Notes: generated by a model from the letters alone, not told the origin. A DNA stretch of 64,000 nt from Puniceicoccaceae bacterium (GCA_040830765.1 JBFOMH010000017.1:32001-96000), one strand, 5' to 3'. Counted from the first letter of the stretch, positions 11,081 through 29,345 are shown. Made by a program: numbers and translations.

Positions 11081-11086
11081 TTGACA
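11081..11086 (+). promoter_or_regulatory. TTGACA-N14-ATG motif
   Basis: 14 nt before ATG 11101. Confidence 0.75.
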
Positions 11087-11100
11087 CTCACTCCTCGCAC

Positions 11101-11751
11101 ATGAGTGAAACTGAATCAGTGAAAGCCAAGGGCCTGGCCGATGGAATTGAAGTATGGTGTGGTTATGAAAAGCTGGTTCCGGTTGAGGATTTAAAGGCCA
11201 ATCCGCGTAATCCGAATACGCACCCGGTCCGCCAAATTGAACTGCTCGCCAAGAATATTCGATATTTTGGATGGCGCCACCCGATTTCTGTTTCCAGGCG
11301 AAGCGGATTGATTGTGGCCGGCCATGGCAGATTGGAAGCGGCCAAGCATTTGAACCTGCAGCTGGTGCCTGTGGATTATCAGAACTTCGCGAGCGAGAAT
11401 GATGAAATGGCGGTATTGATTGCCGACAACCGTTTGGCAGAACTTGCCAGTGTGGATCTCAATTCACTTGAAGGCGTGATCAACGATTTGAAGGTGGAGG
11501 GATTTGATACGCTGCTGACCGGTTTTGAAGACGCCGATTTGGACAGCCTGCTTTCGCCGGACAATTCAAATGAGGTGCTGGAGGAAGAAGATGGAGAGCT
11601 GGAGAAAGGCGACGTCACGATCACTTTGGGTTTGTATCGTTGGAAGGTCAGCCAGGAGGATTACCTCGCTTGGATTGATTCGGTGAAGCAGGAAGTCGGC
11701 TTCGATAAGGAATCGGTGATGAGGGAATTGAGAAAGCGACTGGGTGTATGA
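11101..11751 (+). CDS. ParB/Srx-domain protein
   Basis: NPRNPNTH..FGWRHPI..IVAGHGRLEAA..IADNRLAE. Confidence 0.88.
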   Translation: MSETESVKAKGLADGIEVWCGYEKLVPVEDLKANPRNPNTHPVRQIELLAKNIRYFGWRHPISVSRRSGLIVAGHGRLEAAKHLNLQLVPVDYQNFASENDEMAVLIADNRLAELASVDLNSLEGVINDLKVEGFDTLLTGFEDADLDSLLSPDNSNEVLEEEDGELEKGDVTITLGLYRWKVSQEDYLAWIDSVKQEVGFDKESVMRELRKRLGV

Positions 11752-13259
11752 TCAAGCTTGAGCCATTAGAAGCTGTCGCCCCGTCGACCTACAATCCGCG
11801 CAGCGCGGATCCTCAGCGTCTGGACCTGATTGAGCTTTCGTTAAGGAAACTTGGATTTCTGGCTCCGATCTTTGCCGACGAAAATGGGGAGATTCTTTCC
11901 GGTCACCAGCGACATCTCGTCGCCACCCGGATGGGAGCGAAGCATCTACCGGTATTCCGTACCCGCCCCATGGGGCTCCCTCAAAGAAAGGCGCTGAACA
12001 TCGTTTTCAACCGGGCAACCAATGACTTTGATTGGAACAGTACACCGGAGAAATCCACCCGGGAACTTGCATCACTGGATGTGCATCGCCTTGCGGAATC
12101 GATTTCCGATAAGGCTGTGGATTCCCCCGAATTTATCCGCTGTCTGACTCCGAATCAGGTGAGTGTGAAGGAGCTCTGCCGGACCAATTCCGGAAAGTGG
12201 AAGCAGTATGCGAAGAATCTGGCGAAGACCCTGCATCGAAACGGAATTCTCATGCCGATTATCTGCAAGAGAGATGGTACGGTGATCAATGGTATCGGGC
12301 GCCTTGAAATGCTCGCTGAAAAGAAGATCGAGAATGCTCCTGTCGTATATGTATCGGAAGAGGAGGCAGCTTTCGCAGAAGCGATGATGAACCTGCTTTC
12401 CATGGATTTCGATGTTGAGAGCCGCTATGATGATCTTCTGCGGTATAATTCATTCAGGCGTGCCCGCCGGGTGCGGGAGGAACTGGGCAATGGATTCATA
12501 TTCGCTGTCCACGGGGCAAAGCCTTGCTACACATTTGATATTTTCAATCCGAAGCAGAAGGCAAAGTGGCTGAGGGAACACGGTAATCGCATACTTGATT
12601 TCGGTGCCGGGCACTTGACGGAGACCAAGATTCTCCGCCGGGCGGGAATGGAAGTGTGTGCCTTTGAACCCTATCATATTACGCGATCGGATATTGATAA
12701 GGAGAAGAGTCTTGAGATATGCAGGGAGTTTATTGAAGCAGTTCGAGAAGGCAGAGAGTGGACTTCCATCTTTCTGGCCAGTGTCTTGAACTCGGTACCG
12801 TTCCAGACGGATCGGGAACACATTGCGGTGCTCCTGCAGGCGCTTTGCAGACCGGAAACAAAAGTCTATGCCTGTGCTTCGAGTGTGAGTGAAACCGGTT
12901 GGAGGCAGGTGAATGGGAAGGCATTTTTAAACAAGTCCAATTCAGCGAACATCGCATTCCGGTTGGATTATGAAACGGGAATCAGGATTGGTGATTTCCA
13001 GGACAAGCCGAAGGTGCAGAAGTACCATACGATAAAAGAATTCCATCAGCTATGGACTCCGTTTTTCCGCTCTGTTAGGGTGCGTGAAATGAGTAATAAC
13101 ATTACCGCTACATGCGCACATGCACTACCTGTCGATAAGGAACGGTTGAGGGCGGCAATTGAATTTGAATTTGATCTACCGTATCCGGATGGAACCCGGA
13201 TGGATATGGTTGAGGAAGCAATCGAAGCATTTGAAAAACGATTGGGTGTTAAACTGTGA
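11748..13259 (+). CDS. Tandem ParB domains fused to a class I SAM-methyltransferase-like domain
   Basis: YNPR..ILSGHQRH; second ParB VINGIGRL; RILDFGAGH..AFEPY..LASVLNSVP. Confidence 0.75.
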   Translation: MIKLEPLEAVAPSTYNPRSADPQRLDLIELSLRKLGFLAPIFADENGEILSGHQRHLVATRMGAKHLPVFRTRPMGLPQRKALNIVFNRATNDFDWNSTPEKSTRELASLDVHRLAESISDKAVDSPEFIRCLTPNQVSVKELCRTNSGKWKQYAKNLAKTLHRNGILMPIICKRDGTVINGIGRLEMLAEKKIENAPVVYVSEEEAAFAEAMMNLLSMDFDVESRYDDLLRYNSFRRARRVREELGNGFIFAVHGAKPCYTFDIFNPKQKAKWLREHGNRILDFGAGHLTETKILRRAGMEVCAFEPYHITRSDIDKEKSLEICREFIEAVREGREWTSIFLASVLNSVPFQTDREHIAVLLQALCRPETKVYACASSVSETGWRQVNGKAFLNKSNSANIAFRLDYETGIRIGDFQDKPKVQKYHTIKEFHQLWTPFFRSVRVREMSNNITATCAHALPVDKERLRAAIEFEFDLPYPDGTRMDMVEEAIEAFEKRLGVKL

Positions 13260-13672
13260 TATATCTATTGGATTTAAACTACACGCTGGTTGGGAATTCC
13301 CCAAGAAGGGGAGATCCACCTATCCGGCCATTCATCAGGCAGATCGAGCAAGAAGAGTACCGCCAGTGGTTGGTTGAACTATTGAGGCCTCACAAGGTGA
13401 TTTTAATTACCGCCCGACCGGACCGGTACAGGGAAGTGACCTTGGAGCGTATAAAGGAAAAGACGGGCTGGGAACCGGTGGATGCTTACTTCGCACAAAT
13501 ACAGGCACGACCTCCCCAGATTAAGGAGCACCTTTTGAAAACGCACATCTTCCCAAAGTATGGGAATAATGGATACTTTGCACTTGAGAGTAATCCGTAC
13601 ACTAGGGAGATGTATAAAGGATATGGCATAGAGGCGGTCCGGGTGACGGATCAGGAACTGATGAAATGTTGA
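13256..13672 (+). CDS. HAD-fold phosphatase-like protein (PNKP-phosphatase type)
   Basis: LLDLNYTL, LITARP, IKE and ALESNP variant HAD motifs. Confidence 0.7.
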   Translation: MIYLLDLNYTLVGNSPRRGDPPIRPFIRQIEQEEYRQWLVELLRPHKVILITARPDRYREVTLERIKEKTGWEPVDAYFAQIQARPPQIKEHLLKTHIFPKYGNNGYFALESNPYTREMYKGYGIEAVRVTDQELMKC

Positions 13673-13674
13673 CA
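13669..13674 (+). promoter_or_regulatory. TTGACA-N14-ATG motif
   Basis: 14 nt before ATG 13689. Confidence 0.75.
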
Positions 13675-13688
13675 CTGACTTAACCGGC

Positions 13689-14384
13689 ATGGACGCCGGA
13701 CAGGGGATCGAGACATCGCGCAGCAACTGGGTATTCGACGAAAAGGTCGCACCGAAGTTTGATGAGCATGTGAGAAAAAGCGTTCCCGACTATGATCGGA
13801 TCCAGGATCTGGCAGCAAGTCTTTCTGACTGGTTTGTGAAGGACGGAGGAACCGTTGTGGATCTGGGGGCATCAACCGGTGAAACACTTCATCGCATTCA
13901 AAAACGCAACCCGGCAAAGAAGATCGAGGTTATTGGTTACGACAATTCCAGTGCGATGATCCAGCAGGCGAAGGCAAAGGGAGTGGATGTGCATTTTTGC
14001 GATCTCTCCATGCTTACTGAAATGCGGGGTCACGATTACGGGGTATCGCTCTACACGCTCCAATTTCTGCGCCCGGGAGCCAAGCAGACGGTGCTTTCAG
14101 TATGCTATGATTCATTGAAGCGGGGCGGGGGATTTTTCGTTGTTGAGAAAGTCCATGGAAGCATTCCGGAATTCCAGGACATCACCCAGCAGCTGTACTG
14201 GGAAATGAAACTTGAAAATGGCCTTACACCAAAGGAAGTCCTGAACAAGGCGGCCGCATTGAGGGGCAATATGTTCCCCATGACAGTGGCGGAGAATGAG
14301 GCACTTTTCAGGCGCGTCGGCTTCGTTCGGTATGAGCTTGTATACCGCCATCTGCAATTTGCCGGTTGGCTCCTAATGAAGTAG
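13689..14384 (+). CDS. CmoA-like (carboxy-SAM synthase family) protein
   Basis: WVFDEKVAPKFDEHVRKSVPDY..DLGASTG..YDNSSAM..YTLQFL..VEK follows the CmoA layout over the full length. Confidence 0.8.
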   Translation: MDAGQGIETSRSNWVFDEKVAPKFDEHVRKSVPDYDRIQDLAASLSDWFVKDGGTVVDLGASTGETLHRIQKRNPAKKIEVIGYDNSSAMIQQAKAKGVDVHFCDLSMLTEMRGHDYGVSLYTLQFLRPGAKQTVLSVCYDSLKRGGGFFVVEKVHGSIPEFQDITQQLYWEMKLENGLTPKEVLNKAAALRGNMFPMTVAENEALFRRVGFVRYELVYRHLQFAGWLLMK

Positions 14385-14390
14385 CGGACA

Positions 14391-14396
14391 TTGACA
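14391..14396 (+). promoter_or_regulatory. TTGACA-N14-ATG motif
   Basis: 14 nt before ATG 14411. Confidence 0.75.
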
Positions 14397-14410
14397 CATG
14401 AATCCGGTGC

Positions 14411-15025
14411 ATGGACAACCTGACACCGGATACGGCAACCAAGATTCTCGACGCCGATTTTCAGAACATAGTGAAAAAAGTCGCGGGAGGGAAGACGCTT
14501 ACTGTTGCCGAGAGGGCACTGATTGAGGCACGGGCCTCCGGGAGTAATAACACAACGGCCTATGCCAAGACTGTTGTGGAATTATCTGAGGTACTGGGAG
14601 TAACCAGGCGGACGGTCGGCATGTGGCGCAAAATGCAGGGAGCACCAAAACCACTGTCCAACGGCGACCATGATGTTTCCGCATGGAGAGAGTTTGTCCG
14701 GTTAAACGGCCTGAAAGGCGGCAAGGAACTGGAGGGAGCCAACCATGAGGCCCTAAAGGCAAGGCGGCTACTTGTCGATATTGAGGAACGGGAACTTCGC
14801 CTGGCTATAAAGAGGGGAGACTACCTGCCCATGGAAGAGGTGAGACGGACTGTGATTGAGGGGATGGCACGGCTCTTCGCCATCTTACACAAACGACTCG
14901 AGGACGAATTGCCACCACTGTCCTGTGGAAAGGATGCAGTGGGTATCCGGGAGGAGAATGCCAAGGCTTTGGATGAGGCCCGGCAGGAGGCATATGAATT
15001 TTTCAGCGGATGGACCACAGCTTAA
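14411..15025 (+). CDS. Terminase small subunit (Nu1-like)
   Basis: HTH ELSEVLGVTRRTVGMWRK..GAP and coiled coil ELRLAIKRGDYLP; directly upstream of the large subunit. Confidence 0.8.
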   Translation: MDNLTPDTATKILDADFQNIVKKVAGGKTLTVAERALIEARASGSNNTTAYAKTVVELSEVLGVTRRTVGMWRKMQGAPKPLSNGDHDVSAWREFVRLNGLKGGKELEGANHEALKARRLLVDIEERELRLAIKRGDYLPMEEVRRTVIEGMARLFAILHKRLEDELPPLSCGKDAVGIREENAKALDEARQEAYEFFSGWTTA

Positions 15026-16818: not shown

Positions 16819-17051
16819 ATCGTGGGATTCCCTGTTTGCATCAATAATCCTGAAACAAACGGTTCATTATGGGATTTGGTTACCTCCCTTCTTGGCATAG
16901 ATTGAAGGTTATCATGTAGGTATGGGGAATTATCCAGAATGTAGGCATCTTCTGGAAGTATTGCTTGGATTGCTGCGGCTCCAAGTACCGTATATGTAAT
17001 ATACTTTTTCATAGTACTGGGAGTTACACTTATTCAGTGATTTAGGGAATA

Positions 17052-17576: not shown

Positions 17577-17582
17577 TTGACA
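17577..17582 (+). promoter_or_regulatory. TTGACA-N14-ATG motif
   Basis: 14 nt before ATG 17597. Confidence 0.75.
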
Positions 17583-17596
17583 ATAAGTCGCCTTCG

Positions 17597-17851
17597 ATGG
17601 CGACAATTGATTATTCCATAGGTTTTACCCAGACGGAGGTAGAGGAGATCCTCACCGCTCAAAAGGCTGAGTTGAAAAAGACATTGGCCGCTTACGCCAA
17701 TGATGGATCCAGTGTGACCAAACGCCGTATTGATGAAATTCATGAGATCATCTCTGCCTGCCAGAAGGCCCTACAGAAGCTCGCTCCCGATACTTATGGT
17801 AAGGGGTTGAAGGTATCCCGGACGGGATTTGTCGACCACATGCAGTTGTAG
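17597..17851 (+). CDS. Head-completion protein (gpW-position)
   Basis: 84-aa ORF between terminase and portal; GSSVTKRRIDEI resembles the gpW hairpin. Confidence 0.6.
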   Translation: MATIDYSIGFTQTEVEEILTAQKAELKKTLAAYANDGSSVTKRRIDEIHEIISACQKALQKLAPDTYGKGLKVSRTGFVDHMQL

Positions 17852-17857: not shown

Positions 17858-17863
17858 TTGACA
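17858..17863 (+). promoter_or_regulatory. TTGACA-N13-GTG motif
   Basis: 13 nt before in-frame GTG 17877. Confidence 0.65.
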
Positions 17864-17876
17864 TGTGCCTGGAGCC

Positions 17877-19322
17877 GTGAAGATCCTCCAAAGCATTGGC
17901 AAAGTTCTAATGGGTTCATCCTATGAGGCGGCAAATCCATCAATTCGCCGTTCAAGGGTGCCTGGTGCCGCGCCGTCCGATGCAAGAAGGGAGTTGACGG
18001 CCCATACCCGCCGCGAACTGGTACGCAAAAGCAGATACCTGAACAAGAACAGTGGTTTCTCTCGCGAGGTCGTGGGGGACATGGCGATTTATTCGACCGG
18101 AGATGGAATCCGTCCCCAGGCACAAACAGCGGATCCAGCATGGAACAGGCAGGCGGAGGAATTTTTCAAACGGTGGTCCGCACGTCCCGAAGTGACCAAC
18201 CGGTTCTCATTCGAGGAATGCCAGAATCTGGTTTGCCGGGGAATCGATGTGGACGGGGAATATTTTGTATTGAAAATTCGCGACAAGTTCGGACGTGCCC
18301 GGATACAGTTGGTGGAATCCCACAGGATAGGATCGGCTTCTGAGGATAGAAAGGTGATCGATGGTATTGAATTTGATGCGATAGGAGCGCCGTTTGCTTA
18401 TCATCTTATCCAGGACAATGGAAAGCCTCGGAAGGTGTTCGCCAATGCGGTGATGCATGTCTTTGAACCGGAGTTTGCAAGTGGTGCGCGAAGTCACCCG
18501 ACTTTGCAGCATTCCATCAACCACATTCTCGATGAAATGGAGATGCTTGCGTTGGAAAAGCATGCGGTGAAGGATAATCAGGATGTTTCACGGATCATTA
18601 AGCGCGAAAGCGGAACTTTGGAGGATGATGGAGATTTTAGAGTATCGCCGGATACAGGTGAAGCAGCTGACCAGAGTGATCCGTCCGCTATCCAGAGAAT
18701 CACAGGAGGCAAGGTCCTGGCATTGAAGCCGGGAGAGTCCATGGACAGTTTTCAGTCGAACAGGCCAAGCTCCATGTTCACCGGATTTCTGGAGCACTTG
18801 AAGCGGGACAGCAGCGCCGGGGTACTCCCCTATGAATTTGTACTGGATTCATCCAGTGTGGGTGGTGCCGGAGTACGCTTGATTGTAGCGAAGGCAGACC
18901 GTCGCTTTTCCTACCGGCAACTAATCCTCATCCAGCGATTCCTCAAACCAACATGGGGCTGGGTGATTGGTGATGCCATTGATAGGGGAGAGTTGGAACC
19001 GATGAAGGGTTGGAACAAGGTGACCTGGGTTACTCCACGCCGCATCACGGTCGATGCAGGCCGGGAGGCAGAATCCCACCGGAAAGATGTGGAGATGGGC
19101 CTACTCACATTTTCGGATCATTTCTCAGAGATTGGAATGGATTTTCGCGAAGAAATTGAGCGTAGGGCACAGGATTCAAGAGACATATTGGATATGGCAA
19201 ACCGATATGGTGTACCCGTGGATATGCTCTATCGCCCAAGTGGGACGAAAAGTACTCCTGCTCAGGAACCTTTGACATCGGACGGGGGCAGTGCCCCACA
19301 AAGATCCGAAGAAGAAAGCTGA
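17877..19322 (+). CDS. Portal protein, lambda family
   Basis: SYEAA..ELVRKSRYL..GDGIRPQ..DGEYF..DGIEFD..G.P.AY..GVLPYE. Start placed at GTG 17877 using the upstream motif. Confidence 0.92.
   Translation: MKILQSIGKVLMGSSYEAANPSIRRSRVPGAAPSDARRELTAHTRRELVRKSRYLNKNSGFSREVVGDMAIYSTGDGIRPQAQTADPAWNRQAEEFFKRWSARPEVTNRFSFEECQNLVCRGIDVDGEYFVLKIRDKFGRARIQLVESHRIGSASEDRKVIDGIEFDAIGAPFAYHLIQDNGKPRKVFANAVMHVFEPEFASGARSHPTLQHSINHILDEMEMLALEKHAVKDNQDVSRIIKRESGTLEDDGDFRVSPDTGEAADQSDPSAIQRITGGKVLALKPGESMDSFQSNRPSSMFTGFLEHLKRDSSAGVLPYEFVLDSSSVGGAGVRLIVAKADRRFSYRQLILIQRFLKPTWGWVIGDAIDRGELEPMKGWNKVTWVTPRRITVDAGREAESHRKDVEMGLLTFSDHFSEIGMDFREEIERRAQDSRDILDMANRYGVPVDMLYRPSGTKSTPAQEPLTSDGGSAPQRSEEES
19272..19277 (+). 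promoter_or_regulatory. TTGACA-N13-GTG motif
   Basis: 13 nt before GTG 19291, inside the portal 3' end. Confidence 0.65.
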
Positions 19323-19944
19323 ATACAACCGCCGCTACTACCAAGAAAACCGGGAGCGGCTTAAGGAACATGCACGTAAATATTACCACGATAATATTGA
19401 TGCTCAAAAAATTGTTAGAAAACAATGGCGAGAGGCCAACAAAGACAAAGTTAAAGCTTCAAACAAAGCATACCAGCGAGAGCAAAAGCAAAAAATACGA
19501 GAATATCAACAGGGTCGGAAGAATGATCCTGAGGTCATTGCAAAACGCCGAAATCAAAAGCGTCGATACTATCAACAGCGAATTCAAAGAGATCCACAAT
19601 GGCGGGTAGTTCGTGCTCTTCGTCTTCGACTTTGGACTGCGCTTAAGCAGCGTAAAATAGACAAGTCAGAATCCAGCCTCGAACTTGTTGGATGCGAAAT
19701 CAGTGCCCTCGTCAGACACATTGAAAACCTGTTTCAGCCAGGAATGTCTTGGGAAAATTACGGATCAAAAGGCTGGCATATTGACCACATTACTCCCTGC
19801 GCTGCCTTCGATCTTAGTGATCCAGCACAACAGAAGAAATGTTTCCATTACACGAACCTGCAACCTCTATGGGCGAGAGACAATATAGTTAAAGGGCATA
19901 GTCTTCCCACATCGCTTTCTGAAGCAGTCGTCCCACCCGGTTGA
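19291..19944 (+). CDS. HNH endonuclease with a basic helical N-terminus
   Basis: GMSWENYG..WHIDHITPC..CFHYTNLQPLWARDNIVK. Confidence 0.85.
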   Translation: MPHKDPKKKAEYNRRYYQENRERLKEHARKYYHDNIDAQKIVRKQWREANKDKVKASNKAYQREQKQKIREYQQGRKNDPEVIAKRRNQKRRYYQQRIQRDPQWRVVRALRLRLWTALKQRKIDKSESSLELVGCEISALVRHIENLFQPGMSWENYGSKGWHIDHITPCAAFDLSDPAQQKKCFHYTNLQPLWARDNIVKGHSLPTSLSEAVVPPG

Positions 19945-19946
19945 CA
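19941..19946 (+). promoter_or_regulatory. TTGACA motif upstream of the tRNA
   Basis: 19 nt before the tRNA 5' end at 19966. Confidence 0.6.
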
Positions 19947-19965: not shown

Positions 19966-20035
19966 ACGAGGGAGAAAAGGATTCGGTCGGGCTCATAACC
20001 CGGCAACGCAGGTTCGATTCCTGCCCCTCGTCCCA
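19966..20035 (+). tRNA. Atypical tRNA-Met(CAT), initiator-like anticodon arm, shortened D arm
   Basis: Acceptor ACGAGGG/CCCTCGT, anticodon arm TCGGG-CTCATAA-CCCGG, T arm GCAGG-TTCGATT-CCTGC, encoded CCA; 70 nt. Confidence 0.8.
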
Positions 20036-20044: not shown

Positions 20045-20866
20045 ATGAGACTAGCACACATCACCAATACAATGTATCGGCAGCCCTGGAATATCACCAC
20101 CGATGGCTGGCTGTCGTTGCATCAGATTGTACAAAGCAGGTTGTTTAACGATGCCGTGAATCTGGATTTTTCAGATTTCGTAAATCCCCGCCCGGATGGT
20201 GAAATTGACGGTAATGGTATCGCTCATATCCATGTAATGGGTACTTTGGGGAAACACTTAAGCCAGATTGAGCGTTCCTGCGGCAACACCGGATATGAGC
20301 AAATAGAGGAGGAGATTCGTATAGCAAACGAAGACGGTGCAAAGGGATTCCTGTTTCATATCAATTCTCCGGGAGGAATGGCTGCCGGTAATATTGAGAT
20401 TTCCCGGATGCTTTCAGAAATCAAGAAACCAAAGGCTGTTTGGGTGGATGAACTGGCAGCCTCGGCAGCATATGCCATAGCCAGCGGTGCCGACATTATT
20501 GCGATGGCGCCATCGGCACAGGTCGGGAGCATAGGTACTATTCTTCCATTGGTTGATGTGTCCGGTGCATGGGAGCAGAGGGGATGGAAGCCCGCTTACA
20601 TCACCCATACCGGAGGAGATCTAAAGGATGCCACATGGCCTCCATCATTCACTGATGAGCACCGTGCCCACCTTCAGGAAATGGTGGACGATTATTTCGG
20701 ACAGTTTAAGGAACACGTCTTACAACACAGGAACATGGGACCGGATGCCATGCGCGGACAGACATTCATAGGTCGCAAGGCGAAGGAGGCGAATTTGGTG
20801 GACCATGTGGGCAGTCTGGAAGACACCTACGCGGAGCTCCTCAAGCGGGTTGACAAGGCAAAGTAG
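20045..20866 (+). CDS. S49 prohead protease (lambda gpC-like)
   Basis: INSPGG, AASAAYAIAS, VGSIG. Confidence 0.92.
   Translation: MRLAHITNTMYRQPWNITTDGWLSLHQIVQSRLFNDAVNLDFSDFVNPRPDGEIDGNGIAHIHVMGTLGKHLSQIERSCGNTGYEQIEEEIRIANEDGAKGFLFHINSPGGMAAGNIEISRMLSEIKKPKAVWVDELAASAAYAIASGADIIAMAPSAQVGSIGTILPLVDVSGAWEQRGWKPAYITHTGGDLKDATWPPSFTDEHRAHLQEMVDDYFGQFKEHVLQHRNMGPDAMRGQTFIGRKAKEANLVDHVGSLEDTYAELLKRVDKAK
20850..20855 (+). promoter_or_regulatory. TTGACA-N13-ATG motif
   Basis: 13 nt before ATG 20869, inside the protease 3' end. Confidence 0.7.
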
Positions 20867-20868
20867 GC

Positions 20869-21381
20869 ATGGATTTTCCAAAAGCAGAAGAACTCAACAC
20901 ACTGGCACAGGCACGCGATGCATTTGCTTCCCTTCTCTCAGAACATGAAGCCTCCCGGGATAATCTTTCCCAGGCTTCAGAGGCTCTTGATAAGGCAAAT
21001 GCTGAACTGGATGCGGTGCGTGACGACCTGAAGGCGGCCAATGAAATGCTCGATGAGGCGAATACCAATATTGGTTCCCTGACCGGGAAGTTGAAAGAAT
21101 CCCAGGATAAGGAGCAGACTCTCAGTAATGAATTGAAAGTGGCCAAGGAGTTGAACCAGTCGGTTGAACAGAAGGTTTCCAAGCTGGAAGCAGATGCAAA
21201 GTCTGCTGAGGCTAAAGCGGCTGAAATCTGTGCTTCCGTTGGTGTGGAGCCTGCGCAGGTTACTCCGGGTGGGGAGCCTAAACAGCAGTCCCTGATTGAG
21301 CAATTGAAGGAGATCAAGAATCCTGCTGAACAAATGACTTTCTTTCGCAAGCACCGCGACGAGATCATTAAGGGGCATTAA
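20869..21381 (+). CDS. Coiled-coil scaffold-like protein
   Basis: Long heptad coiled coil between protease and capsid. Confidence 0.65.
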   Translation: MDFPKAEELNTLAQARDAFASLLSEHEASRDNLSQASEALDKANAELDAVRDDLKAANEMLDEANTNIGSLTGKLKESQDKEQTLSNELKVAKELNQSVEQKVSKLEADAKSAEAKAAEICASVGVEPAQVTPGGEPKQQSLIEQLKEIKNPAEQMTFFRKHRDEIIKGH

Positions 21382-21410: not shown

Positions 21411-21442
21411 GCGCTGTGGTTTACGGGCCATGGCGCTTTTTT
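21411..21442 (+). terminator. Intrinsic terminator
   Basis: GCGCTGTGGT-ttacgg-GCCATGGCGC stem (with G:U pairs) followed by TTTTTT. Confidence 0.65.
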
Positions 21443-21466
21443 GTATCCAGATCTCCAGCACAGCGG

Positions 21467-21472
21467 TTGACA
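21467..21472 (+). promoter_or_regulatory. TTGACA-N13-ATG motif
   Basis: 13 nt before ATG 21486. Confidence 0.75.
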
Positions 21473-21485
21473 CGCCATGCAGTGC

Positions 21486-22391
21486 ATGGCCAATAACCTT
21501 ACCGAAGTACAAGACCTGCGCATCGCAGACAAGTTTCTGGAAGCCTTTGTTGCTGAACTGACCGCCCTGCGTGCCTTCTCCACTGATTTTACCCCTGAAT
21601 TTGCCAAGCGTGGCAAGACCGTGAATGTTCCGGTTATCGGGGCCGCGAACTCTTCCTATGACTTCGCCGGCAGCTATTCCGCAAATGCGGACAGCGATGT
21701 CCAGGGAATCCCGGTTGTGCTGGATAAGCATAAAGTACAGTCGCTGCACCTGACTGATAAGGAAGTGAGCGAATCCGCATGGGTATCTCTAGAACGCCTC
21801 GCAATATCCAAGGCCCGACAGTTAGCACAGGATGTCCTCACCGACATCTGGAGTCTTGTGACCATCGAAAATTATGGTCCGGCTTCGATTCCTGGACTTG
21901 CGGCCACTGACTTTAGTGCTGATTCAGTCCTCGCAGTCCGACAGGCTTGTGCCGCTGCAAAGATGCCGGCCACTGATCGTGCACTTATCCTGGATAGTGC
22001 CTATTACTCCAATCTGCTTGGGGATGCCAAGATTTCCAATAGCTATCTTAGTCAGATGAGTGCACCATCGCTCATGGAGGCGAAGATTCCAAGGGTCTAT
22101 GGATTCGATATCTACGAAACCACCATTATGCCGGACAATGCGGAGAACCTGGTCGGTTTTGCAGCCCATCCTCGGGGAATTGCAGTAGCGATGCGCTACC
22201 TTCAGCCAATCGACAGCTCAGCCTATCTGGATGCAGGACCGGTCACTGACCAGTCCACTGGTATCACCCTCGGGTACCGAAAGTACTACGATACCGATTC
22301 AGGTAAGATGATCGCCGCATTTGAGTGTGTCTACGGATACCGCAAGGCAATCGCCGATGGTATCAAGCGTATCGAAGATACCGGGGCTTAA
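21486..22391 (+). CDS. Major capsid protein
   Basis: MANNL..RGKTVNVP..VVLDKHK..IPRVYGFDIYE..VYGY; size and position fit. Confidence 0.85.
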   Translation: MANNLTEVQDLRIADKFLEAFVAELTALRAFSTDFTPEFAKRGKTVNVPVIGAANSSYDFAGSYSANADSDVQGIPVVLDKHKVQSLHLTDKEVSESAWVSLERLAISKARQLAQDVLTDIWSLVTIENYGPASIPGLAATDFSADSVLAVRQACAAAKMPATDRALILDSAYYSNLLGDAKISNSYLSQMSAPSLMEAKIPRVYGFDIYETTIMPDNAENLVGFAAHPRGIAVAMRYLQPIDSSAYLDAGPVTDQSTGITLGYRKYYDTDSGKMIAAFECVYGYRKAIADGIKRIEDTGA

Positions 22392-22418: not shown

Positions 22419-22448
22419 AGGGCTCCATCTCACCGGTGGGGCCCTTTT
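22419..22448 (+). terminator. Intrinsic terminator after the capsid gene
   Basis: AGGGCTCCAT...GTGGGGCCCT followed by a short T run. Confidence 0.6.
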
Positions 22449-22475
22449 GTATTAAAGTCTTCTACGGTTAAATCA

Positions 22476-23042: not shown

Positions 23043-23774
23043 TTAGGCGCTTGTTGAAGAATGATCTTTAGCCACAGATAATTTCAAGCCTTTGAAGATA
23101 AGCCAAATCCCCAATGCCAGCTCAAAAACCACTATTGGCATATCATACCAGGTGGGGTGAACAACATATTGAAAGTCAGAGGAAATGATGAATGTGAAAG
23201 CACAAAAAACGCACCAAACAGATGAAAAAATACCAAAAACAGCCAGTGCTCTCGGAATATAACGAGACTTAAACCACAGGTAGCTAACAATACAGGAGGA
23301 CAAAGTCCAGAAAGGCAGACCGATGTAATAGGCATCATAGCTAAAGTCCAAGAGAAGCCTTACCATAGCATGTAATTGATTGGTTTCGAAAGCATTCAAG
23401 AAGGAACTGCCTCCCAAGATCCGTAGAGAGGCAAGCATCATTAGTGAAGTAACACCCCACATGACAGAAACCAATAAACGGCAGAATGCTGCAATCATGG
23501 CGAGGTTCCGGCCTGCTGGCTTAAGAATTACATAAAGCGATGAGAGGAGTATCAATTGGATTGTCGCATAGAGTAGATTGCAGAAAATGTTGAATCGCCA
23601 TAATCCTTCATTCTCAACGATGTTTCTGGCAGTTTCTTCGGCTTTGCCTGGTATGCTCAGACGGAAACTGACTCCATAATTTGCAACAACAACAATTATC
23701 AAGGCGAATATGAACGTAAATCCTGCGAGACTCGCCGCATTTCGCTGCGTTTTATTAAGAGCATTAGTTGCCAT
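23043..23774 (-). CDS. DUF4386 family membrane protein (moron)
   Basis: AASLAG..ETARNI..FKSRYIPRAL..FELALGIWLIFKG; start placed at MATN. Confidence 0.75.
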   Translation of the reverse strand: MATNALNKTQRNAASLAGFTFIFALIIVVVANYGVSFRLSIPGKAEETARNIVENEGLWRFNIFCNLLYATIQLILLSSLYVILKPAGRNLAMIAAFCRLLVSVMWGVTSLMMLASLRILGGSSFLNAFETNQLHAMVRLLLDFSYDAYYIGLPFWTLSSCIVSYLWFKSRYIPRALAVFGIFSSVWCVFCAFTFIISSDFQYVVHPTWYDMPIVVFELALGIWLIFKGLKLSVAKDHSSTSA

Positions 23775-24026
23775 TCGTGTTTTCTCCCTTCGTCTAAAGA
23801 CTCTACAAAATAATAGTTGTCTATTGGTTGGTTGTACAAACTTGGGGTTAGCGTTTCGTGGTGACGGATAAGGGTACTTTCTGGTAAATGCGAGACTTTT
23901 CCCAATTCTATAAGCCTTTATCAAATGACCTTCTCGGTTGATTTCAATGTTGTAGTATTCCTACTATATAGGCAAAGCGTGATCATCGACTCTATTGGCC
24001 AATCGTGAAAACAGCCTGACACTATG

Positions 24027-24032
24027 TTGACA
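24027..24032 (+). promoter_or_regulatory. TTGACA-N13-ATG motif
   Basis: 13 nt before ATG 24046, right after the moron insert. Confidence 0.75.
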
Positions 24033-24045
24033 AGCCCTTCGGGGC

Positions 24046-24360
24046 ATGAGTTTCGAATCAGATCAATTGGAGGGTTTCAGGGAACTGCTGGAAACATCCG
24101 GTGGCCTTTTTGTTCACCCATCCGGAGAGTTTCGTGGCCTGGTTAAGCGTATTGAACCGGAGAATGAGGAGTTTGACCTGACCCCCGGCGACGACGACCG
24201 GGTACAGGTATCGGGGCTAAAGACCGAAGTCCCTGCTGAAGTGGTCAAGGTGGGAGCATCCTTAACTGATTCCGAAGACTATTCGTACCGGGTAACCGGG
24301 ATACGCCGCTCACCAAACCATGTGGCTGTGCGCCTTGAATGCGAAGTTGTGAACCCATGA
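24046..24360 (+). CDS. Head-tail joining protein (gpFII-like)
   Basis: 104-aa beta-rich ORF in the post-capsid position. Confidence 0.55.
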   Translation: MSFESDQLEGFRELLETSGGLFVHPSGEFRGLVKRIEPENEEFDLTPGDDDRVQVSGLKTEVPAEVVKVGASLTDSEDYSYRVTGIRRSPNHVAVRLECEVVNP

Positions 24361-24614: not shown

Positions 24615-25189
24615 GACAGGATCTGGTTGAGTTTAACCGGAGCCTGCAAAAGTACCTGCAGTACAACAAGCGGGACCTGGGCCCCCTGATTGAAAACCGT
24701 GGCCGGCGGATTCAATGGGCACTGTATCGACAATTTCGCGACATTGCTCCGACTCCCGGTAAAATCATGCAGGACGCAAAGTCTAGGCAGTACCGGATCA
24801 AGAGACGCAAAGGCAAAAGTGGGAAGAAGTTGTCTTTGAAGCAGGAGCTGGCAGTGCGGCGCCAGTCTGTGAAGTGGCTTTCGGTTAGTTTCCTGATTCG
24901 CAATTGGAAGGCAAAGAGGGAAGGGCAGGCGGCTGCCTATCATGCTGTATCGCGCAAGAAGTGGAAGATAGGAAAGGCGATTCTTCGGACTGCAAAGGGG
25001 AGGAGTAATCCAAGTGTGCGGATTGAAAGCTATTTGGAGGGTGCTGCCATCCAGAACGCCCAGCGTGGTATCGTGAACCGGGTGATAAGCGGTGAGGCAG
25101 CTGACATGGAAACCTATGTGGCCCGCAAGCAACAGGAGGCCTTCAAGCGCCAGTTTGGCCGGGCACTAACCCAAATAATCCGCATATGA
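24611..25189 (+). CDS. Basic neck/tail-completion protein
   Basis: Very K/R-rich, coupled ORF in the head-tail connector region. Confidence 0.55.
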   Translation: MRQDLVEFNRSLQKYLQYNKRDLGPLIENRGRRIQWALYRQFRDIAPTPGKIMQDAKSRQYRIKRRKGKSGKKLSLKQELAVRRQSVKWLSVSFLIRNWKAKREGQAAAYHAVSRKKWKIGKAILRTAKGRSNPSVRIESYLEGAAIQNAQRGIVNRVISGEAADMETYVARKQQEAFKRQFGRALTQIIRI

Positions 25190-25623
25190 CTCTTTCAGAT
25201 ATAGTCCCAACGATTGTTACCCTCTTAAAAGGCAGCGAGTTGCTCTCAACACTGGAGATCCTCACCAATGCGGATGAGAGCTACAACACGAGGCTGGAGC
25301 AGGCATTGCGGGAGAAGGGCGTGGCACTGGTCGTGGTCCAGTCAGCGGGGGAATTGAAGGACAAGAAGAGTCCGCTCCTTTATTTGGTGAATTCGGTTAT
25401 GGTGACCGTACTTGAGAATCCGGCCACCAATGAGACAGGCACAAGTGCCCTGGGCATTGTGGAGGAGGTATTAAGGCAGGTGCACGGGGCACAGTGGAAA
25501 ACGCAGAAGGGATTACAGAACCGGTACACGGTTGACACCCCCGCGTACGAGATGGGGCCGCTCGATGGAGGGCTGATCACGTACTTCTGCAACTTTCACA
25601 TTCTGACCATTCACGAAAACTAA
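25186..25623 (+). CDS. Tail terminator-like protein
   Basis: 145 aa, immediately before the tail tube gene. Confidence 0.5.
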   Translation: MTLSDIVPTIVTLLKGSELLSTLEILTNADESYNTRLEQALREKGVALVVVQSAGELKDKKSPLLYLVNSVMVTVLENPATNETGTSALGIVEEVLRQVHGAQWKTQKGLQNRYTVDTPAYEMGPLDGGLITYFCNFHILTIHEN

Positions 25624-26585: not shown

Positions 26586-26594
26586 AACTTTGTC

Positions 26595-27005
26595 ATGTCG
26601 ATTCTACTACAAGTCACTGCCGCGGAAATCAATAACGGCGTCCAGAAGGCCAACACCGAAATCGACGGGAAGGTCCCGAAGCCTGGATTCAATACCCAGA
26701 CGGGAACAAGTTACACTCCCCAACTAACAGATAACAACGGTGTCATTGAAATGGATAGTGCAGAGTTGAACACGGTGAATCTGCCCACAGACGCAGAGGT
26801 CGCTTTCCCGGTTCCCTCTGAAGGGATTTTGCGGACCTCTTTCGATGTCGTGCCAATTGGTGCCGGGACGACAGCTATCCAGGCACCTGCAGGAGTGCTT
26901 CTAAATGGAATAGATGGAGGAACCATTTTGAGCCTTGATCCATATGCGGCCATGGCCGTGTACAAGAGGGGCGAAAATGACTGGGTGGCAATTGGAGGGG
27001 AATAA
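26595..27005 (+). CDS. Tail fibre-type domain protein
   Basis: NTQTGTSYT..TVNLP..VAFP..GAGTTAI.AP.GV.LNG..KRGENDWVAIG is a common fibre module. Confidence 0.65.
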   Translation: MSILLQVTAAEINNGVQKANTEIDGKVPKPGFNTQTGTSYTPQLTDNNGVIEMDSAELNTVNLPTDAEVAFPVPSEGILRTSFDVVPIGAGTTAIQAPAGVLLNGIDGGTILSLDPYAAMAVYKRGENDWVAIGGE

Positions 27006-27008
27006 GCG

Positions 27009-27443
27009 ATGCCTGTACTGACCGTATTGATCCGTGGAATACATCCGAACAAGGGCTGGAGAGGCACTCCCCGGAATGTTTTTGCTGATCCTTTAATTCA
27101 GATTGGCCTACAGGATTTGGACTATGAGCTGGTTGTCGTGTCAGGCGACCCCGGATCGCAGGATGCACTCATTGAAATGGGGCTTCAGAGTGTGGACTAC
27201 ATGGCGGCAGTGATTGATGCCGGAAGCCCAATCCCGGATGAGGCAGTTGTTGAGATGGGACTTCAAAGCGTGGACTATATGGCAGCAGTGATAGATGCCG
27301 GAAGCCCAATCCCGGATGAAGCAGTGCTTAATATCGGTATCCAGAGCGTCGATTACTTTGATGCAATTCCCTTCAGCTCAACCTTTATCGACGAATCGAA
27401 AGTGGAGATGGGACTCCATTCAGTTGACTACTCAATCCCGTAA
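27009..27443 (+). CDS. 25-26-aa repeat protein
   Basis: Five xG(L/I)(Q/H)xxDY units; near-identical 78-nt DNA repeats start at 27174 and 27252. Confidence 0.7.
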   Translation: MPVLTVLIRGIHPNKGWRGTPRNVFADPLIQIGLQDLDYELVVVSGDPGSQDALIEMGLQSVDYMAAVIDAGSPIPDEAVVEMGLQSVDYMAAVIDAGSPIPDEAVLNIGIQSVDYFDAIPFSSTFIDESKVEMGLHSVDYSIP

Positions 27444-27448
27444 AAGAC

Positions 27449-28669: not shown

Positions 28670-28715
28670 TAACAGGGTGGTGCCCATTAGTTGGGTTGCA
28701 TTTGCTTGATTCCAA

Positions 28716-28961
28716 ATGAAGAGGTTTCAGGACATTGAAGTCGGTCGCTGGTTCCTGAAAGAGGGTCGGGTCTGCCAGCGTCTGGAACCGCTAAACGGAT
28801 CAAATACCTACAATTTCACTCGTTCGAAGTGGGACTACACCCACCCCAAAACCCCGGTTGAGCCAACCTTCTCCCCTATTCACCCAAAGGACTTTGGACC
28901 GGGACGAAAGGCCGTGGAAACAATCCACCTGTTTGGTGATGGTCTCTGGGCGAAGGGCTGA
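28716..28961 (+). CDS. Small hypothetical protein
   Basis: 81-aa ORF filling the gap before the chaperone gene. Confidence 0.5.
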   Translation: MKRFQDIEVGRWFLKEGRVCQRLEPLNGSNTYNFTRSKWDYTHPKTPVEPTFSPIHPKDFGPGRKAVETIHLFGDGLWAKG

Positions 28962-28969
28962 ACTAACGG

Positions 28970-28975
28970 TTGACA
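28970..28975 (+). promoter_or_regulatory. TTGACA-N16-ATG motif variant
   Basis: 16 nt before ATG 28992. Confidence 0.55.
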
Positions 28976-28991
28976 CACCCTCATCCGTATC

Positions 28992-29345
28992 ATGGCGGAT
29001 GAAAATCAAGGCAATGTGATCGCCAAGGGCGGTCAGGAACTCGAAGTGCAACTGGAAACCGGTCACTGCGAGACGGTGAAGGTACGACTGCTCCCATTAG
29101 GGAAAATGCCGGATTTCTTCCGGGGCCTGGATGACGACATCTTCTTGATCCAGTTGGTCACTGGAAAAACCAAAACCTTCGCAGAATCGCTCAACTTTGA
29201 GAGCGGGATGGAAATCGTGGAAAAGGCGCACGAGGTAAATTTCCCCAATGCCCTCCGGTGGTCGGAAAGGAGGGCAAAGCGGCTCGCTCCACTGATTCCC
29301 ATGGCCGAGAAGGGAATGAAGATCCAGCGACAATTGATGACCTGA
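28992..29345 (+). CDS. Tail assembly chaperone (gpG-like)
   Basis: Position before the tape measure, with an overlapping -1 frame ORF. Confidence 0.65.
   Translation: MADENQGNVIAKGGQELEVQLETGHCETVKVRLLPLGKMPDFFRGLDDDIFLIQLVTGKTKTFAESLNFESGMEIVEKAHEVNFPNALRWSERRAKRLAPLIPMAEKGMKIQRQLMT

Follow-up and report, generated by a model that had tools for sequence, protein, structure and literature searches.

TTGACA boxes at fixed distances from late-gene starts

The window analysed here, the whole stretch of 64 kb, carries a prophage whose host is a marine verrucomicrobial bacterium. Its late region includes genes for a ParB-like protein, a methyltransferase, the small terminase, the portal, a protease, a coiled-coil (scaffold-like) protein and the major head protein, together with a tRNA gene and intrinsic terminators (Table 1). 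Between 11 and 29 kb, the hexamer TTGACA occurs twelve times on the + strand, whereas a hexamer search of the same interval returned zero copies on the − strand. Ten of these twelve boxes stand 13-14 nt upstream of an ATG or GTG, and the other two lie 16 nt before an ATG and 19 nt before tRNA-Met. Given that a random ATG or GTG would fall at either of the two offsets in about 0.06 of sites, simple arithmetic yields P ~4e-11 for ten of twelve. Across the whole window and both strands, TTGACA is rather rare (26 observed vs 39.9 expected from shuffles), yet it is concentrated in 11-29 kb.

All twelve positions and spacings listed in a preliminary description of this DNA were recovered by the search, and its statement that the box persists within upstream coding sequence holds for the 3′ ends of the portal and protease genes. 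One entry requires correction: the box at 25532 does lie 14 nt before an ATG, as described, but this ATG (25552) is internal to ORF 25186-25623 and in frame with it, thus opening just 23 codons and marking no gene start. Late genes without a box had been described as mostly coupled to their upstream neighbours, and most of them indeed overlap or abut the preceding gene (gaps −22 to +9), the box-less and uncoupled exceptions being 17052, 20045 (behind the tRNA) and 28716.

Table 1. Boxes and associated features in the window; spacings run from the hexamer to the start codon or tRNA.
Feature	Position	Strand	Remarks
Candidate specificity factor, 181 aa	4268..4813	+	C-terminal half resembles sigma region 4
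Box in 3′ end of gene 4268	4718..4723	+	encodes Leu-Thr of conserved S-L-T-A-R; 37 nt before ATG 4761
Box and ParB-like gene 11101-11751	11081..11103	+	14 nt, ATG; family 3
Box and methyltransferase gene 13689-14384	13669..13691	+	14 nt, ATG; family 6; box includes TGA stop of ORF 13256-13672
Box and small terminase gene 14411-15025	14391..14413	+	14 nt, ATG; family 9
Box and 84-aa gene 17597-17851	17577..17599	+	14 nt, ATG; family 1
Box and portal gene 17877-19322	17858..17879	+	13 nt, GTG; family 0
Box and gene 19291-19944	19272..19293	+	13 nt, GTG; box within portal 3′ end
Box before tRNA	19941..19946	+	19 nt; box includes TGA stop of gene 19291-19944
tRNA-Met (CAU), initiator-like	19966..20035	+	70 nt; Rfam tRNA 39.9 bits
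Box and coiled-coil (scaffold-like) gene 20869-21381	20850..20871	+	13 nt, ATG; box within protease 3′ end; family 4
Intrinsic terminator	21411..21446	+	11-bp stem and TTTTTTGTAT; 30 nt before box 21467
Box and major head protein gene 21486-22391	21467..21488	+	13 nt, ATG; family 8
Intrinsic terminator after head protein gene	22419..22455	+	11-bp stem, 7 pairs GC
Box and gene 24046-24360	24027..24048	+	13 nt, ATG; family 2; first gene past opposite-strand DUF4386 insert
In-gene box	25532..25537	+	codons GTT GAC A of ORF 25186-25623; 14 nt before ATG 25552; 86 nt before gene 25624
Box and gene 28992-29345	28970..28994	+	16 nt, ATG
Possible further in-gene box	37204..37209	+	cgggTTGACA context as usual; 71 nt before gene 37281

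Conservation in related prophages and contrast with the host

The layout is kept in 38 related Opitutales/Puniceicoccales prophage loci, ahead of 19 protein families. Together with the window, these loci contain 271 distinct + strand sites; counted to starts opening at least 50 aa, a spacing of 13 nt occurs 108 times, one of 14 nt 26 times and one of 15 nt 14 times. When the search was restricted to ATG or GTG (other start codons may exist), 172 sites were start-linked across 19 unrelated protein families, and the spacing within a family shifted only between 13 and 14-15 nt, except in family 1 (the 84-aa gene), where it ranged from 13 to 17 nt with a mixed base at −1. The portal family starts with GTG at 31/31 sites, with 13 nt in 28 and C or T at −1 in 31; the ParB-like family has 17 sites with a spacing of 13 or 14 nt and C at −1 in 16; and the major head protein family combines 13 nt with C at −1 in 6/6 sites. 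Coding conservation begins at the ATG 13 nt past the box, and the PHROG profile of the head protein starts at the Met encoded by ATG 21486. Some conserved boxes lie 20 or 25 nt before starts, and the in-gene box at 25532 of the window recurs in 15 related loci with its codon choice conserved.

The hexamer is strongly strand-biased (277 vs 18) and ranks first of 180 same-composition hexamers on the + strand, while its antisense depletion is unremarkable (rank 39 of 180). Among 52 distant loci (dereplicated), an unbiased scan of hexamers also placed TTGACA first at spacing 13-15 (54 vs 4.2 expected). In the whole genome (3.99 Mb), TTGACA-N13/14-[AG]TG opening an ORF of at least 40 aa gave 32 matches, 9 of them in the prophage, and by this genome-wide count host genes show no excess of the layout. 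Motif, spacing, conservation and the absence of a host-gene excess are direct observations.

The hexamer itself is identical to the −35 consensus of the host, whose TTGACN boxes stand 34-45 nt 5′ of tRNA genes (17/22 matches), and the prophage sites all carry the exact TTGACA. In phage P8625 (KP792622, host Puniceicoccales sp. IMCC8625), four annotated start codons each follow a TTGACA at a distance of exactly 30 nt, in the order TTGACA, 17-nt spacer, TATTGG-type −10 box, 7 nt and ATG (4 among 14 + strand hexamers). Since both host and P8625 place the hexamer at canonical distances, the clade uses canonical geometry, and the 13-nt layout is something else. This bears on the idea that the sites are host sigma A promoters of the ordinary kind, whose canonical −35 would be TTGACA and whose start would lie ~30 nt downstream, an idea we consider practically untenable despite the host and P8625 usage, as the observed geometry (starts 13-14 nt and tRNA 19 nt past the box) already contradicts it, the start would land ~16 nt inside ORFs or at tRNA position 11, no TANNNT lies 16-19 nt downstream, and coding conservation runs from the ATG 13 nt past the box.

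Signals between and around the boxes

The spacers between box and start are mutually unrelated, GC-rich and end in C in 8/11 cases; logos and a consensus scan found no TANNNT within them, as the preliminary description had reported of −10-like elements, and none 16-19 nt 3′ of any box. The logos of boxed sites show few A residues where −11 would be expected. A sigma54 promoter was not recognized, with no conserved GG upstream of the box and the conserved word falling where the sigma54 spacer would be. The spacers contain no Shine-Dalgarno, whose usage in the host is essentially nil (17.6% vs 14.8% control), and the box shows no complementarity to the ordinary 16S 3′ end (GGATCACCTCCTTTCT) of four relatives, which served for the comparison, the host assembly itself being without a 16S gene. 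In these relatives, the complement of the box occurs in 16S only near position 1203, and at 614 in one. C or T occupies −1 in most sites of 16/19 families, compared with a host figure of 48%; transcription usually prefers to start on a purine (+1) preceded by a pyrimidine (−1). At sites without a start at 13/14 nt, the pyrimidine-purine step at the expected distance is no commoner than at control offsets (77/125 vs 50-78).

Strong terminators precede boxes by 8-30 nt in seven cases (the window, L002, L030, L014, L024, L027 and L036), which concern the head protein gene and homologues of gene 24046. The terminator-then-box module of the head protein gene recurs in L002 and L030, and in L014, L024 and L027 the box homologous to 24027 comes 8-15 nt after the terminator T-tract. 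Such proximity leaves ~35-40 nt for a promoter.

Inverted repeats and an initiator-like tRNA

At 145/159 sites, inverted repeats join the spacer to the first codons. In the window, CCGGC/GCCGG surrounds ATG 13689, GTCGCC/GGCGAC encloses ATG 17597, GGGGC/GCCCC lies over GTG 19291, and CATCCG/CGGATG holds ATG 28992 in its loop (z = −3.6). Stems are kept through compensatory changes in families 0, 1, 3, 6, 7 and 10, including a change in L032 at the repeat around the family 6 start. Boxed starts are more structured (family mean z −0.82, MFE −8.5) than host starts (+0.11, −4.8; P = 1.8e-4) and than coupled starts of the same phages (z +0.16, MFE −6.1). The repeats are about as strong antisense as sense (z −0.75 vs −0.87), so that the sense RNA is not singled out, and the hairpin centres vary in position from −8 to +8.

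The phage tRNA carries a GGG/CCC anticodon stem at loop CUCAUAA, A1:U72, C73 and an encoded CCA, nine nucleotides past which comes the protease ATG 20045. It thus has the initiator features of three G:C anticodon-stem pairs and a weak 1:72 pair, with an atypical 3-bp D stem. Position 1:72 is A:U or G.U in 8/8 loci, and a host initiator-like gene (C21:45476) likewise combines C73 with a weak 1:72 pair. The distance from box to tRNA is exactly 19 nt in 8/8 tRNA-bearing loci, across six different spacer sequences; because a tRNA needs no ribosome signal, this fixed box speaks for a promoter.

A helix-turn-helix protein linked to the box

In the protein of gene 4268, an N-terminal helical hairpin, in which Y15, Y19 and W22 are conserved, is joined by an acidic linker to a sigma-region-4-like helix-turn-helix at the C-terminus. 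The protein has 549 homologues, a few of which are named in their source records as sigma24, YlxM or DNA-binding phage protein, and none was found among sequenced phage records. In an AF2 model (pLDDT 75.6), the N-terminal part consists of just two helices, and residues 60-142 align to region 4 of sigma32, SigH, SigL, sigmaA, AlgU and SigE-r4 with −35 DNA at Z scores of only 5.0-5.9. Sigma region 4 heads the list of structure matches, yet other helix-turn-helix proteins score equally, and the best Foldseek E is 0.045. Sigma region 2 was not detected in the protein, nor did any Pfam sigma model match at E 0.01 or better; the conserved Y15, Y19 and W22 offer a lead towards region 2 but no match.

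In relatives, the 4268 homologue directly precedes the first TTGACA-headed gene. Across 60 loci, which were located via homologues of the 4268 protein, the 481 kb upstream of the homologue contain 4 start-linked boxes and the 515 kb downstream contain 76; the late-only distribution and the link to gene 4268 are thus observed directly. The gene also contains a box in its own 3′ end, within the S-L-T-A-R motif, whose box codon choice is the same in 11/12 homologues inspected. In the window, the codon at +13 after this box is ATC; more distant relatives carry an ATG at +13 that shares the frame of the following gene. L054 has a deviating motif and, ahead of the following gene, a separate TTGACA-13-ATG. 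The 4268 protein is the best candidate factor for the box; the preliminary description had already pointed at this gene.

A putative compact late promoter

Judged from sequence, TTGACA probably is a phage-specific compact late promoter giving leaderless or nearly leaderless mRNAs, a reading to which we assign a probability of roughly 0.55. The hexamer would be the promoter core, its last base ~14 bp before a transcription start at, or a few bases away from, the A/G of the start codon, so that each late block not coupled to its upstream neighbour would produce its own leaderless or nearly leaderless mRNA. The box would then occupy −19 to −14, the zone touched by sigma domain 3 in extended −10 promoters. 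We infer that the 181-aa 4268 protein may read the box on double-stranded DNA, serving host RNA polymerase either as an adaptor or as a minimal sigma. The repeats may act in one of two ways: by hiding the start codon in read-through RNA, which would restrict translation to messages born at the promoter, or by helping the GC-rich DNA to open. The initiator-like tRNA, made from the same type of box, may help to translate leaderless messages by supporting initiation at 5′-terminal start codons.

The preliminary description had proposed a late promoter of compressed geometry with a transcriptional rather than a ribosomal role. The preference for transcription is favoured by the tRNA box, the terminators, the sigma-region-4-like gene, the canonical distance in the host and the lack of 16S complementarity, and the in-gene boxes (25532 and its counterparts in 15 loci) and those at 20/25 nt are likewise easier to reconcile with a promoter than with a ribosome site. 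The compressed promoter itself meets opposition from the hairpins and the composition of the melting region. The 13 bp from box to start are GC-rich and without a −10-like element, and we know of no bacterial polymerase that opens such GC-rich DNA without one. Moreover, an RNA hairpin needs the spacer in the transcript, and since a leaderless mRNA lacks it, the repeats count against the promoter reading. The match to the sigma region 4 fold is also weak (Z below 6, Foldseek E 0.045), with no region 2. The unremarkable antisense depletion of the hexamer and the pyrimidine-purine count at sites lacking a start at 13/14 nt weigh against it as well. The most detailed version is put forward tentatively, as a possibility we rather doubt: a minimal sigma-like protein with a region-4 helix-turn-helix at −19 to −14, with host polymerase opening the GC-rich start-codon repeat without a −10, would yield leaderless mRNAs, the repeats silencing read-through starts, and a phage initiator tRNA from a promoter of the same type would serve their translation in a nearly Shine-Dalgarno-free host. 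If true, this would add a promoter architecture so far undescribed for a bacterial polymerase.

The main rival is a translational operator at the RNA level, in which long transcripts would have each uncoupled start codon locked in a small hairpin, which a phage factor opens or closes by landing on UUGACA immediately 5′ of it. The start-codon repeats and the GC-rich supposed melting region keep this model alive, although we consider it unlikely. It would account for the tight box-to-start spacing, the unusual structure of start regions relative to host and coupled starts, the compensatory changes that preserve stems, the lack of Shine-Dalgarno sequences in a host that uses almost none, and GC-rich spacers unlike a melting region. 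It sits poorly with the fixed distance to the tRNA in 8/8 loci, boxes 8-30 nt past strong terminators, conserved boxes far from any start, and repeats as strong antisense with centres from −8 to +8; the sole associated conserved protein resembles a DNA-binding helix-turn-helix, and no RNA-binding protein for the model was identified. An RNA-library contig that starts 8 nt before box 17577 and spans four more boxes counts against the promoter reading, but as contigs can neither resolve transcript starts nor show single transcripts, it is not decisive. Phage Mu Com on mom mRNA provides a precedent, with a protein site directly 5′ of a start-codon hairpin, a single gene and a zinc-finger RNA-binding protein. 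The present case differs in its dozen genes, its tRNA and its helix-turn-helix protein, and its hairpins are present and covarying but loosely placed.

RNA processing is improbable as an explanation. An endoribonuclease of host or phage would cut at UUGACA and the hairpin would shield the new 5′ end, giving stable transcript units, much as RNase III divides the long transcript of phage T7 into units. Sites do recur between late cistrons and ahead of the tRNA, with hairpins adjoining the box, but cleavage would not require a constant 13-14 nt to a start, a start-codon hairpin would hinder translation, boxes right behind terminators leave little RNA to cut, and the ORFs scanned include no nuclease gene. 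Quite improbable, too, are DNA-binding sites other than promoters, at which the 4268 protein or region 4 of host sigma A would block, pause or mark polymerase at gene starts, for example for late-gene silencing in the lysogen or for loading of an antitermination factor. The identity of the box with the host −35 consensus, the associated helix-turn-helix protein and the terminators inside the late region, which suit antitermination, agree with such sites, but roadblocks or loading need not hold 13-14 nt across 19 gene families, and known Q-type factors load once per operon, against a dozen boxes here.

Comparison with known phage systems

The virion RNA polymerase of phage N4 is a single-subunit enzyme using a hairpin promoter upstream of the start. 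The putative promoters here resemble it in their small inverted repeats of 5-7 bp, which could extrude single strands, and are unlike it in that the ORF scan revealed no RNA polymerase gene in the prophage.

In extended −10 promoters and with factors displacing sigma region 4 (P23-45 gp39, T4 AsiA/MotA), as far as the available text of the source goes, a small phage protein shifts recognition off the canonical −35 (PMC7403470). As in the proposed promoter, these systems read double-stranded DNA immediately 5′ of −12, but according to that text they retain a TATAAT-type −10, whereas here there is none and the word would lie at −19 to −14.

Dense late promoters giving leaderless mRNAs from the A/G of the start codon are described for the Thermus phages Lalka27a and phiYS40 in the accessible portion of the preprint, whose authors infer a phage factor modifying host polymerase and see no need for antitermination (bioRxiv 10.64898/2026.04.20.719267). 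On the basis of that portion, both there and here a phage-specific hexamer stands at a fixed short distance from many late start codons. The hexamer of the Thermus phages, TAGGGT, serves as a −10 element of the TANNNT kind at 6 bp from the start and is accompanied by a conserved C at −25; here, in another host phylum, a −35-consensus hexamer ends 13-14 bp before the start codon with no −10, and the starts are predicted. Dense leaderless late promoters are therefore known, and the present geometry is not.

For P8625, the available part of the genome paper is silent on promoters (PMC4642752). P8625 shares with the present prophages the host order, the hexamer, a start codon at the expected transcript start and the lack of a Shine-Dalgarno; its geometry is canonical, which sets the hexamer back from the start by another 17 nt.

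A fixed-distance TTGACA box marks the late genes

The prophage, which is siphovirus-like by gene content, extends roughly from 30 kb of contig C17 to 40 kb of the window. All 12 plus-strand TTGACA hexamers (boxes) that the preliminary description had placed between 11 and 29 kb were recovered by a hexamer listing, and a window scan found none on the minus strand of this interval; in the whole window, both strands together carry 26 copies versus 39.9 expected from shuffles. The distances that it had assigned to start codons and to the tRNA proved accurate throughout, with one gene start lost: the ATG behind the box at 25532 is an in-frame internal codon of ORF 25186-25623.

Plus-strand boxes of the late region, the starts behind them and landmark features of the prophage (window positions)
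Box	Distance (nt)	Start or feature	Annotation	Inverted-repeat example
		early side	Gam, SSB, primase, helicase	
11081	14	ATG 11101	ParB-like gene	
		11748	ParB-like gene	
13669	14	ATG 13689	methyltransferase	yes
14391	14	ATG 14411	small terminase	
		15010	large terminase	
17577	14	ATG 17597		yes
17858	13	GTG 17877	portal	
19272	13	GTG 19291		yes
19941	19	19966-20035	tRNA-Met	
		20045	protease	
20850	13	ATG 20869	scaffold-like gene	
		21411-21436 + T-tract	terminator (+)	
21467	13	ATG 21486	major head protein	yes
		22419-22445 + T-tract	terminator (+)	
24027	13	ATG 24046		
25532	14	ATG 25552	internal codon	
28970	16	ATG 28992		yes
		29567	tape measure	

Relatives fetched by the portal protein comprised 29 viral and 9 genomic loci (66-91% identity), every one of which carries many plus-strand boxes and few minus-strand ones, and the 13-14-nt spacing noticed in the single prophage recurs across them. 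After dereplication, 277 plus-strand versus 18 minus-strand boxes were counted, and TTGACA was the commonest of 180 same-composition hexamers on the plus strand. A start opening at least 50 aa lies at 13 nt in 108, at 14 nt in 26 and at 15 nt in 14 of the 271 distinct plus-strand sites; start-linked sites number 172, in 19 protein families. Members of one family differ freely in spacer sequence but keep its length at 13-14 nt, sometimes 15-17 nt. In the family-weighted logo, the base ahead of the box is G in 68% and C in 3%, with otherwise no conservation upstream of the box; behind it come one free base and three G/C-rich positions from which A is almost excluded, and a G followed by a pyrimidine immediately precedes the start. 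Nothing in this logo resembles a -10 box, whose absence had been claimed. In 16 of 19 families most sites have a pyrimidine at -1, compared to 48% in host genes. The signal is real, conserved and phage-specific.

Several features lie beside this arrangement. The low-GC (43%) cargo block at 5800-10000, between the regulator module and the late genes, encodes GrpB, a VanY-type peptidase, a methyltransferase and AAA_33 kinase-like, HIT-like and hydrolase proteins; these genes have no box, and their homologues are absent from related loci. A DUF4386 membrane-protein gene (23043-23924, minus strand) separates the head protein terminator from the head-tail genes as an insert that is missing in relatives, yet these retain the box ahead of the next gene. 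A minus-strand TTGACA at 39672-39677 may be a chance occurrence; the ATG 14 nt behind it is in frame within ORF 38953-40230 (425 aa), which lies at the prophage's right end.

Boxes away from gene starts and behind terminators

The tRNA is present in eight loci, and the box stands exactly 19 nt ahead of its 5' end in all eight, behind six different spacer sequences; in each, the protease ATG lies 9 nt behind the CCA. Where relatives lack the tRNA, a box at 13 nt directly heads the protease gene (family 5). Homologues of gene 25186 contain a box within the gene (codons GTT GAC A), found in the window and 15 related loci, approximately 70-90 nt ahead of the next gene, and two further conserved classes place the box 20 nt (11 loci) or 25 nt (5 loci) ahead of an ATG. 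A signal acting at a set distance from itself fits these sites better than one tied to the ribosome. At sites with no start at 13/14 nt, a fixed-distance pyrimidine-purine step did no better than control offsets.

Two strong plus-strand terminators flank the head protein gene, and only about 40 nt, box included, separate the first T-tract from the head protein ATG. The same terminator-box module occurs at this gene in the related loci L002 and L030, and a second module, with 8-15 nt, precedes homologues of gene 24046 in L014, L024 and L027. A simple scan of all related loci returned 62 distinct terminator-like sites, seven with a box within 100 nt downstream, these modules among them. With terminators placed just ahead of boxes, transcription must restart in the short gap, unless the terminators are overridden.

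Inverted repeats enclose box-linked starts

Short inverted repeats, a feature absent from the preliminary description, enclose box-linked starts: the spacer supplies the 5' arm and the first codons the 3' arm, which places the start codon either in the loop or within the 3' arm. Compensatory changes preserve the stems in families 0, 1, 3, 6, 7 and 10, and in family 10 the third base of the Ala codon behind the ATG covaries with the spacer. Folding over positions -13 to +24 gave a mean z of -0.82 and a mean MFE of -8.5 kcal/mol for box-linked starts (family means), compared to +0.11 and -4.8 kcal/mol for 400 host starts (Mann-Whitney p = 1.8e-4) and +0.16 and -6.1 kcal/mol for 171 coupled starts in the same phage loci. 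Since structure is avoided at ordinary translation starts, the box-linked ones fall outside that class. Repeat strength is the same on the antisense strand, the repeat centre is loose, with no fixed register, and inspection by eye of the tRNA and in-gene sites found no convincing repeats. A stem formed within the spacer (positions 7-9 with 16-18) was discarded at 1.38 pairs per site, versus 1.38 in the control.

Three roles may be envisaged. If the real message is leaderless it would lack the 5' arm, and the hairpin would silence read-through RNA only; alternatively, some factor would have to open the start-codon hairpin; or the repeat may act on DNA.

A candidate specificity factor

Gene 4268-4813, which overlaps the preceding gene's stop via ATGA, encodes a 181-aa protein with 549 homologues, nearly all unnamed; a few are named sigma-24 family, YlxM or DNA-binding phage protein by their sources. 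The alignment is conserved in an N-terminal stretch (Y15, Y19, W22) and strongly so in a C-terminal helix-turn-helix, the acidic linker between them being variable. A Foldseek search of its AF2 model (pLDDT 75.6) against the PDB gave no match at E ≤ 0.001, the best being sigma32 (E 0.045), and a PDB profile search returned nothing meaningful. In a wide structural search, residues 60-142 aligned to region 4 of many sigma factors (Z 5.0-5.9), tied with other helix-turn-helix proteins, a weak match on a predicted structure by which the protein may be a sigma-region-4-like candidate factor. No homologue was found among 50,697 phage records.

Where the late region follows directly, relatives carry the 4268 homologue immediately ahead of the first box-headed gene. 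The Leu-Thr codons of a conserved S-L-T-A-R motif in these homologues spell TTGACA in 11 of 12 inspected; the sole exception, L054, has a separate TTGACA-13-ATG ahead of the next gene. The codon that follows this regulator-gene box at 13 nt (window 4737-4763) is ATC in the Opitutales group, in frame with ATG 4761; in more distant relatives it is ATG, extending the next protein by 8-11 residues. The 4268 protein retrieved 80 viral loci, 60 with usable coordinates, in which four start-linked boxes lie in 481 kb upstream of the homologue versus 76 in 515 kb downstream. When every hexamer was counted without bias at 13-15 nt ahead of candidate starts, across 52 dereplicated distant loci, TTGACA came first (54 versus 4.2 expected from other spacings). 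This enrichment and ranking indicate that box and 4268 gene travel together well beyond the Opitutales group.

Host genes follow another geometry

The spacing is neither a chance product nor a general trait of the host: TTGACA-N13/14-ATG/GTG opening at least 40 aa occurs 32 times in 3.99 Mb, nine of them in the prophage, and the host TTGACA spacing profile shows coding periodicity only. No upstream motif at all was found in 2,493 host ORFs with nearly unambiguous starts, and Shine-Dalgarno-like tetramers were barely more frequent there than in the control (17.6% versus 14.8%), which fits the account in PMC10783764 of some Verrucomicrobia as poor in Shine-Dalgarno sites while retaining CCUCC. 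TTGACN lies within 100 nt upstream of 20 of 44 host tRNA genes, with the hexamer end 34-45 nt ahead of the tRNA in 17 of 22 matches, often after an A-rich stretch, which indicates that the main host sigma factor uses the word as an ordinary -35 box. TTGACA-N17-TANNNT is not enriched genome-wide in the host, and with no clear TANNNT -10 box upstream of its tRNA genes, the host -10 consensus may, judging from sequence, be unusual. These upstream regions contain pyrimidine-rich CCTTTCC-type leaders, and the A-rich stretches lie ahead of TTGACN.

Phage P8625 infects a cultured Puniceicoccales strain (PMC4642752), and its record KP792622 has TTGACA exactly 30 nt ahead of four annotated ATGs, with a TATTGG-type box 7 nt ahead of them, which suggests, at the level of sequence, that ATG-initial messages from canonical promoters are used in this clade. 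In contrast to P8625, the box of the prophage family lies 17 nt closer to the start. Canonical sigma geometry would put the start 16 nt inside the ORFs, or inside the tRNA, and is also contradicted by coding conservation that begins at the ATG 13 nt behind the box.

The box as a probable compact late promoter

We favor the box as a compact late promoter for leaderless messages, at a probability of roughly 0.55. This reading accounts for the boxes at the tRNA, behind terminators, within genes and at longer spacings, for their restriction to the late region behind a gene of DNA-binding type, and for the pyrimidine-purine step at the start; it leaves the opening of GC-rich DNA without a -10 box unexplained. 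The preliminary description had preferred a transcriptional over a ribosomal role, and the tRNA site, terminator modules and in-gene boxes favor the same choice; the inverted repeats lend themselves just as well to a reading as RNA operators. An operator at the RNA level, formed by box and hairpin, draws on that equal reading and is unlikely on balance; the remaining readings rate lower still. Pairing with 16S rRNA was rejected, the relatives' 3' end being ordinary and the box complement occurring only in the 16S body, as were sigma54 and extended -10 readings: for a 17-nt spacer, the extended -10 position is occupied by the start codon's TG, but just 4% of sites have A at the would-be -11. 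Antisense depletion as a sign of a DNA-level role was not telling (rank 39 of 180).

The geometry is less strange than it appears: the last base of the box, at -14, coincides with the end of the TG in extended -10 promoters, a place at which sigma domain 3 contacts double-stranded DNA. Displacement or replacement of sigma region 4 by phage proteins is described in PMC7403470. Thermus phages offer a precedent in their many leaderless late promoters (bioRxiv 10.64898/2026.04.20.719267), and most likely their strategy appears here in a new form, with a named candidate factor. If the starts are as predicted, a -35-type word would direct polymerase from a distance of just 14 bp, without a -10 box.

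Almost no studies address the gene-expression signals of Verrucomicrobiota or of their phages: literature searches found no paper on promoters of Verrucomicrobiota phages, and nothing on this signal under TTGACA leaderless late promoters, verrucomicrobial start sites or Opitutales prophages. The signal is very clean: hundreds of sites support it, and a candidate factor can be named. Such a signal would delimit the late regulon of a widespread group of prophages, better gene-start calling in these genomes and supply portable expression parts for a phylum without genetic tools.

The phage tRNA-Met and further observations

The tRNA-Met (Rfam tRNA score 39.9 bits) looks like an initiator by its sequence: three G:C pairs (GGG/CCC anticodon stem) adjoin the CUCAUAA loop, the 1:72 pair is weak (A:U or G.U in all eight loci), and C73 is shared with the host's initiator-like gene. 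Its D arm is shortened to a 3-bp stem. With the protease ATG so close behind the encoded CCA, tRNA processing would give the protease message a very short leader. According to PMC10783764, leaderless messages rely for their translation on ribosomes already loaded with initiator tRNA; a phage initiator tRNA among the late genes would fit the leaderless model without proving it. A literature search turned up no study in which a phage initiator tRNA serves leaderless messages.

In the host, a near-identical word, AACCTGTAATA[T/C]AG[C/G], directly adjoins TTGACA at window 40484-40510 and 44365-44391, ahead of a sodium:solute symporter gene (40550) and an amidohydrolase gene (44413), with a GntR/FCD regulator gene (43630) nearby; it is probably an operator overlapping the -35 box.

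Seven RNA-library runs contain part of the stretch, and the RNA examined came from four metatranscriptome runs of one study, as contigs, which are uninformative on starts, strands and levels. The late region is present, the contigs of run X1 containing 0.93 of sampled words. Some contigs begin 10-23 nt behind box-linked ATGs (11119, 21498, 24056 and, in two runs, 25575), and three runs have no contig between about 21392 and 21498 among those listed; being contig boundaries, these are not start evidence. Another contig begins at 17569, ahead of a box, and runs across four more, which as a contig shows no single transcript. An X1 contig (depth 277) skips 78 nt at 27215-27294, inside gene 27009-27443; because 26 letters at the joint match either side, the skip resembles a deletion variant formed between direct repeats.
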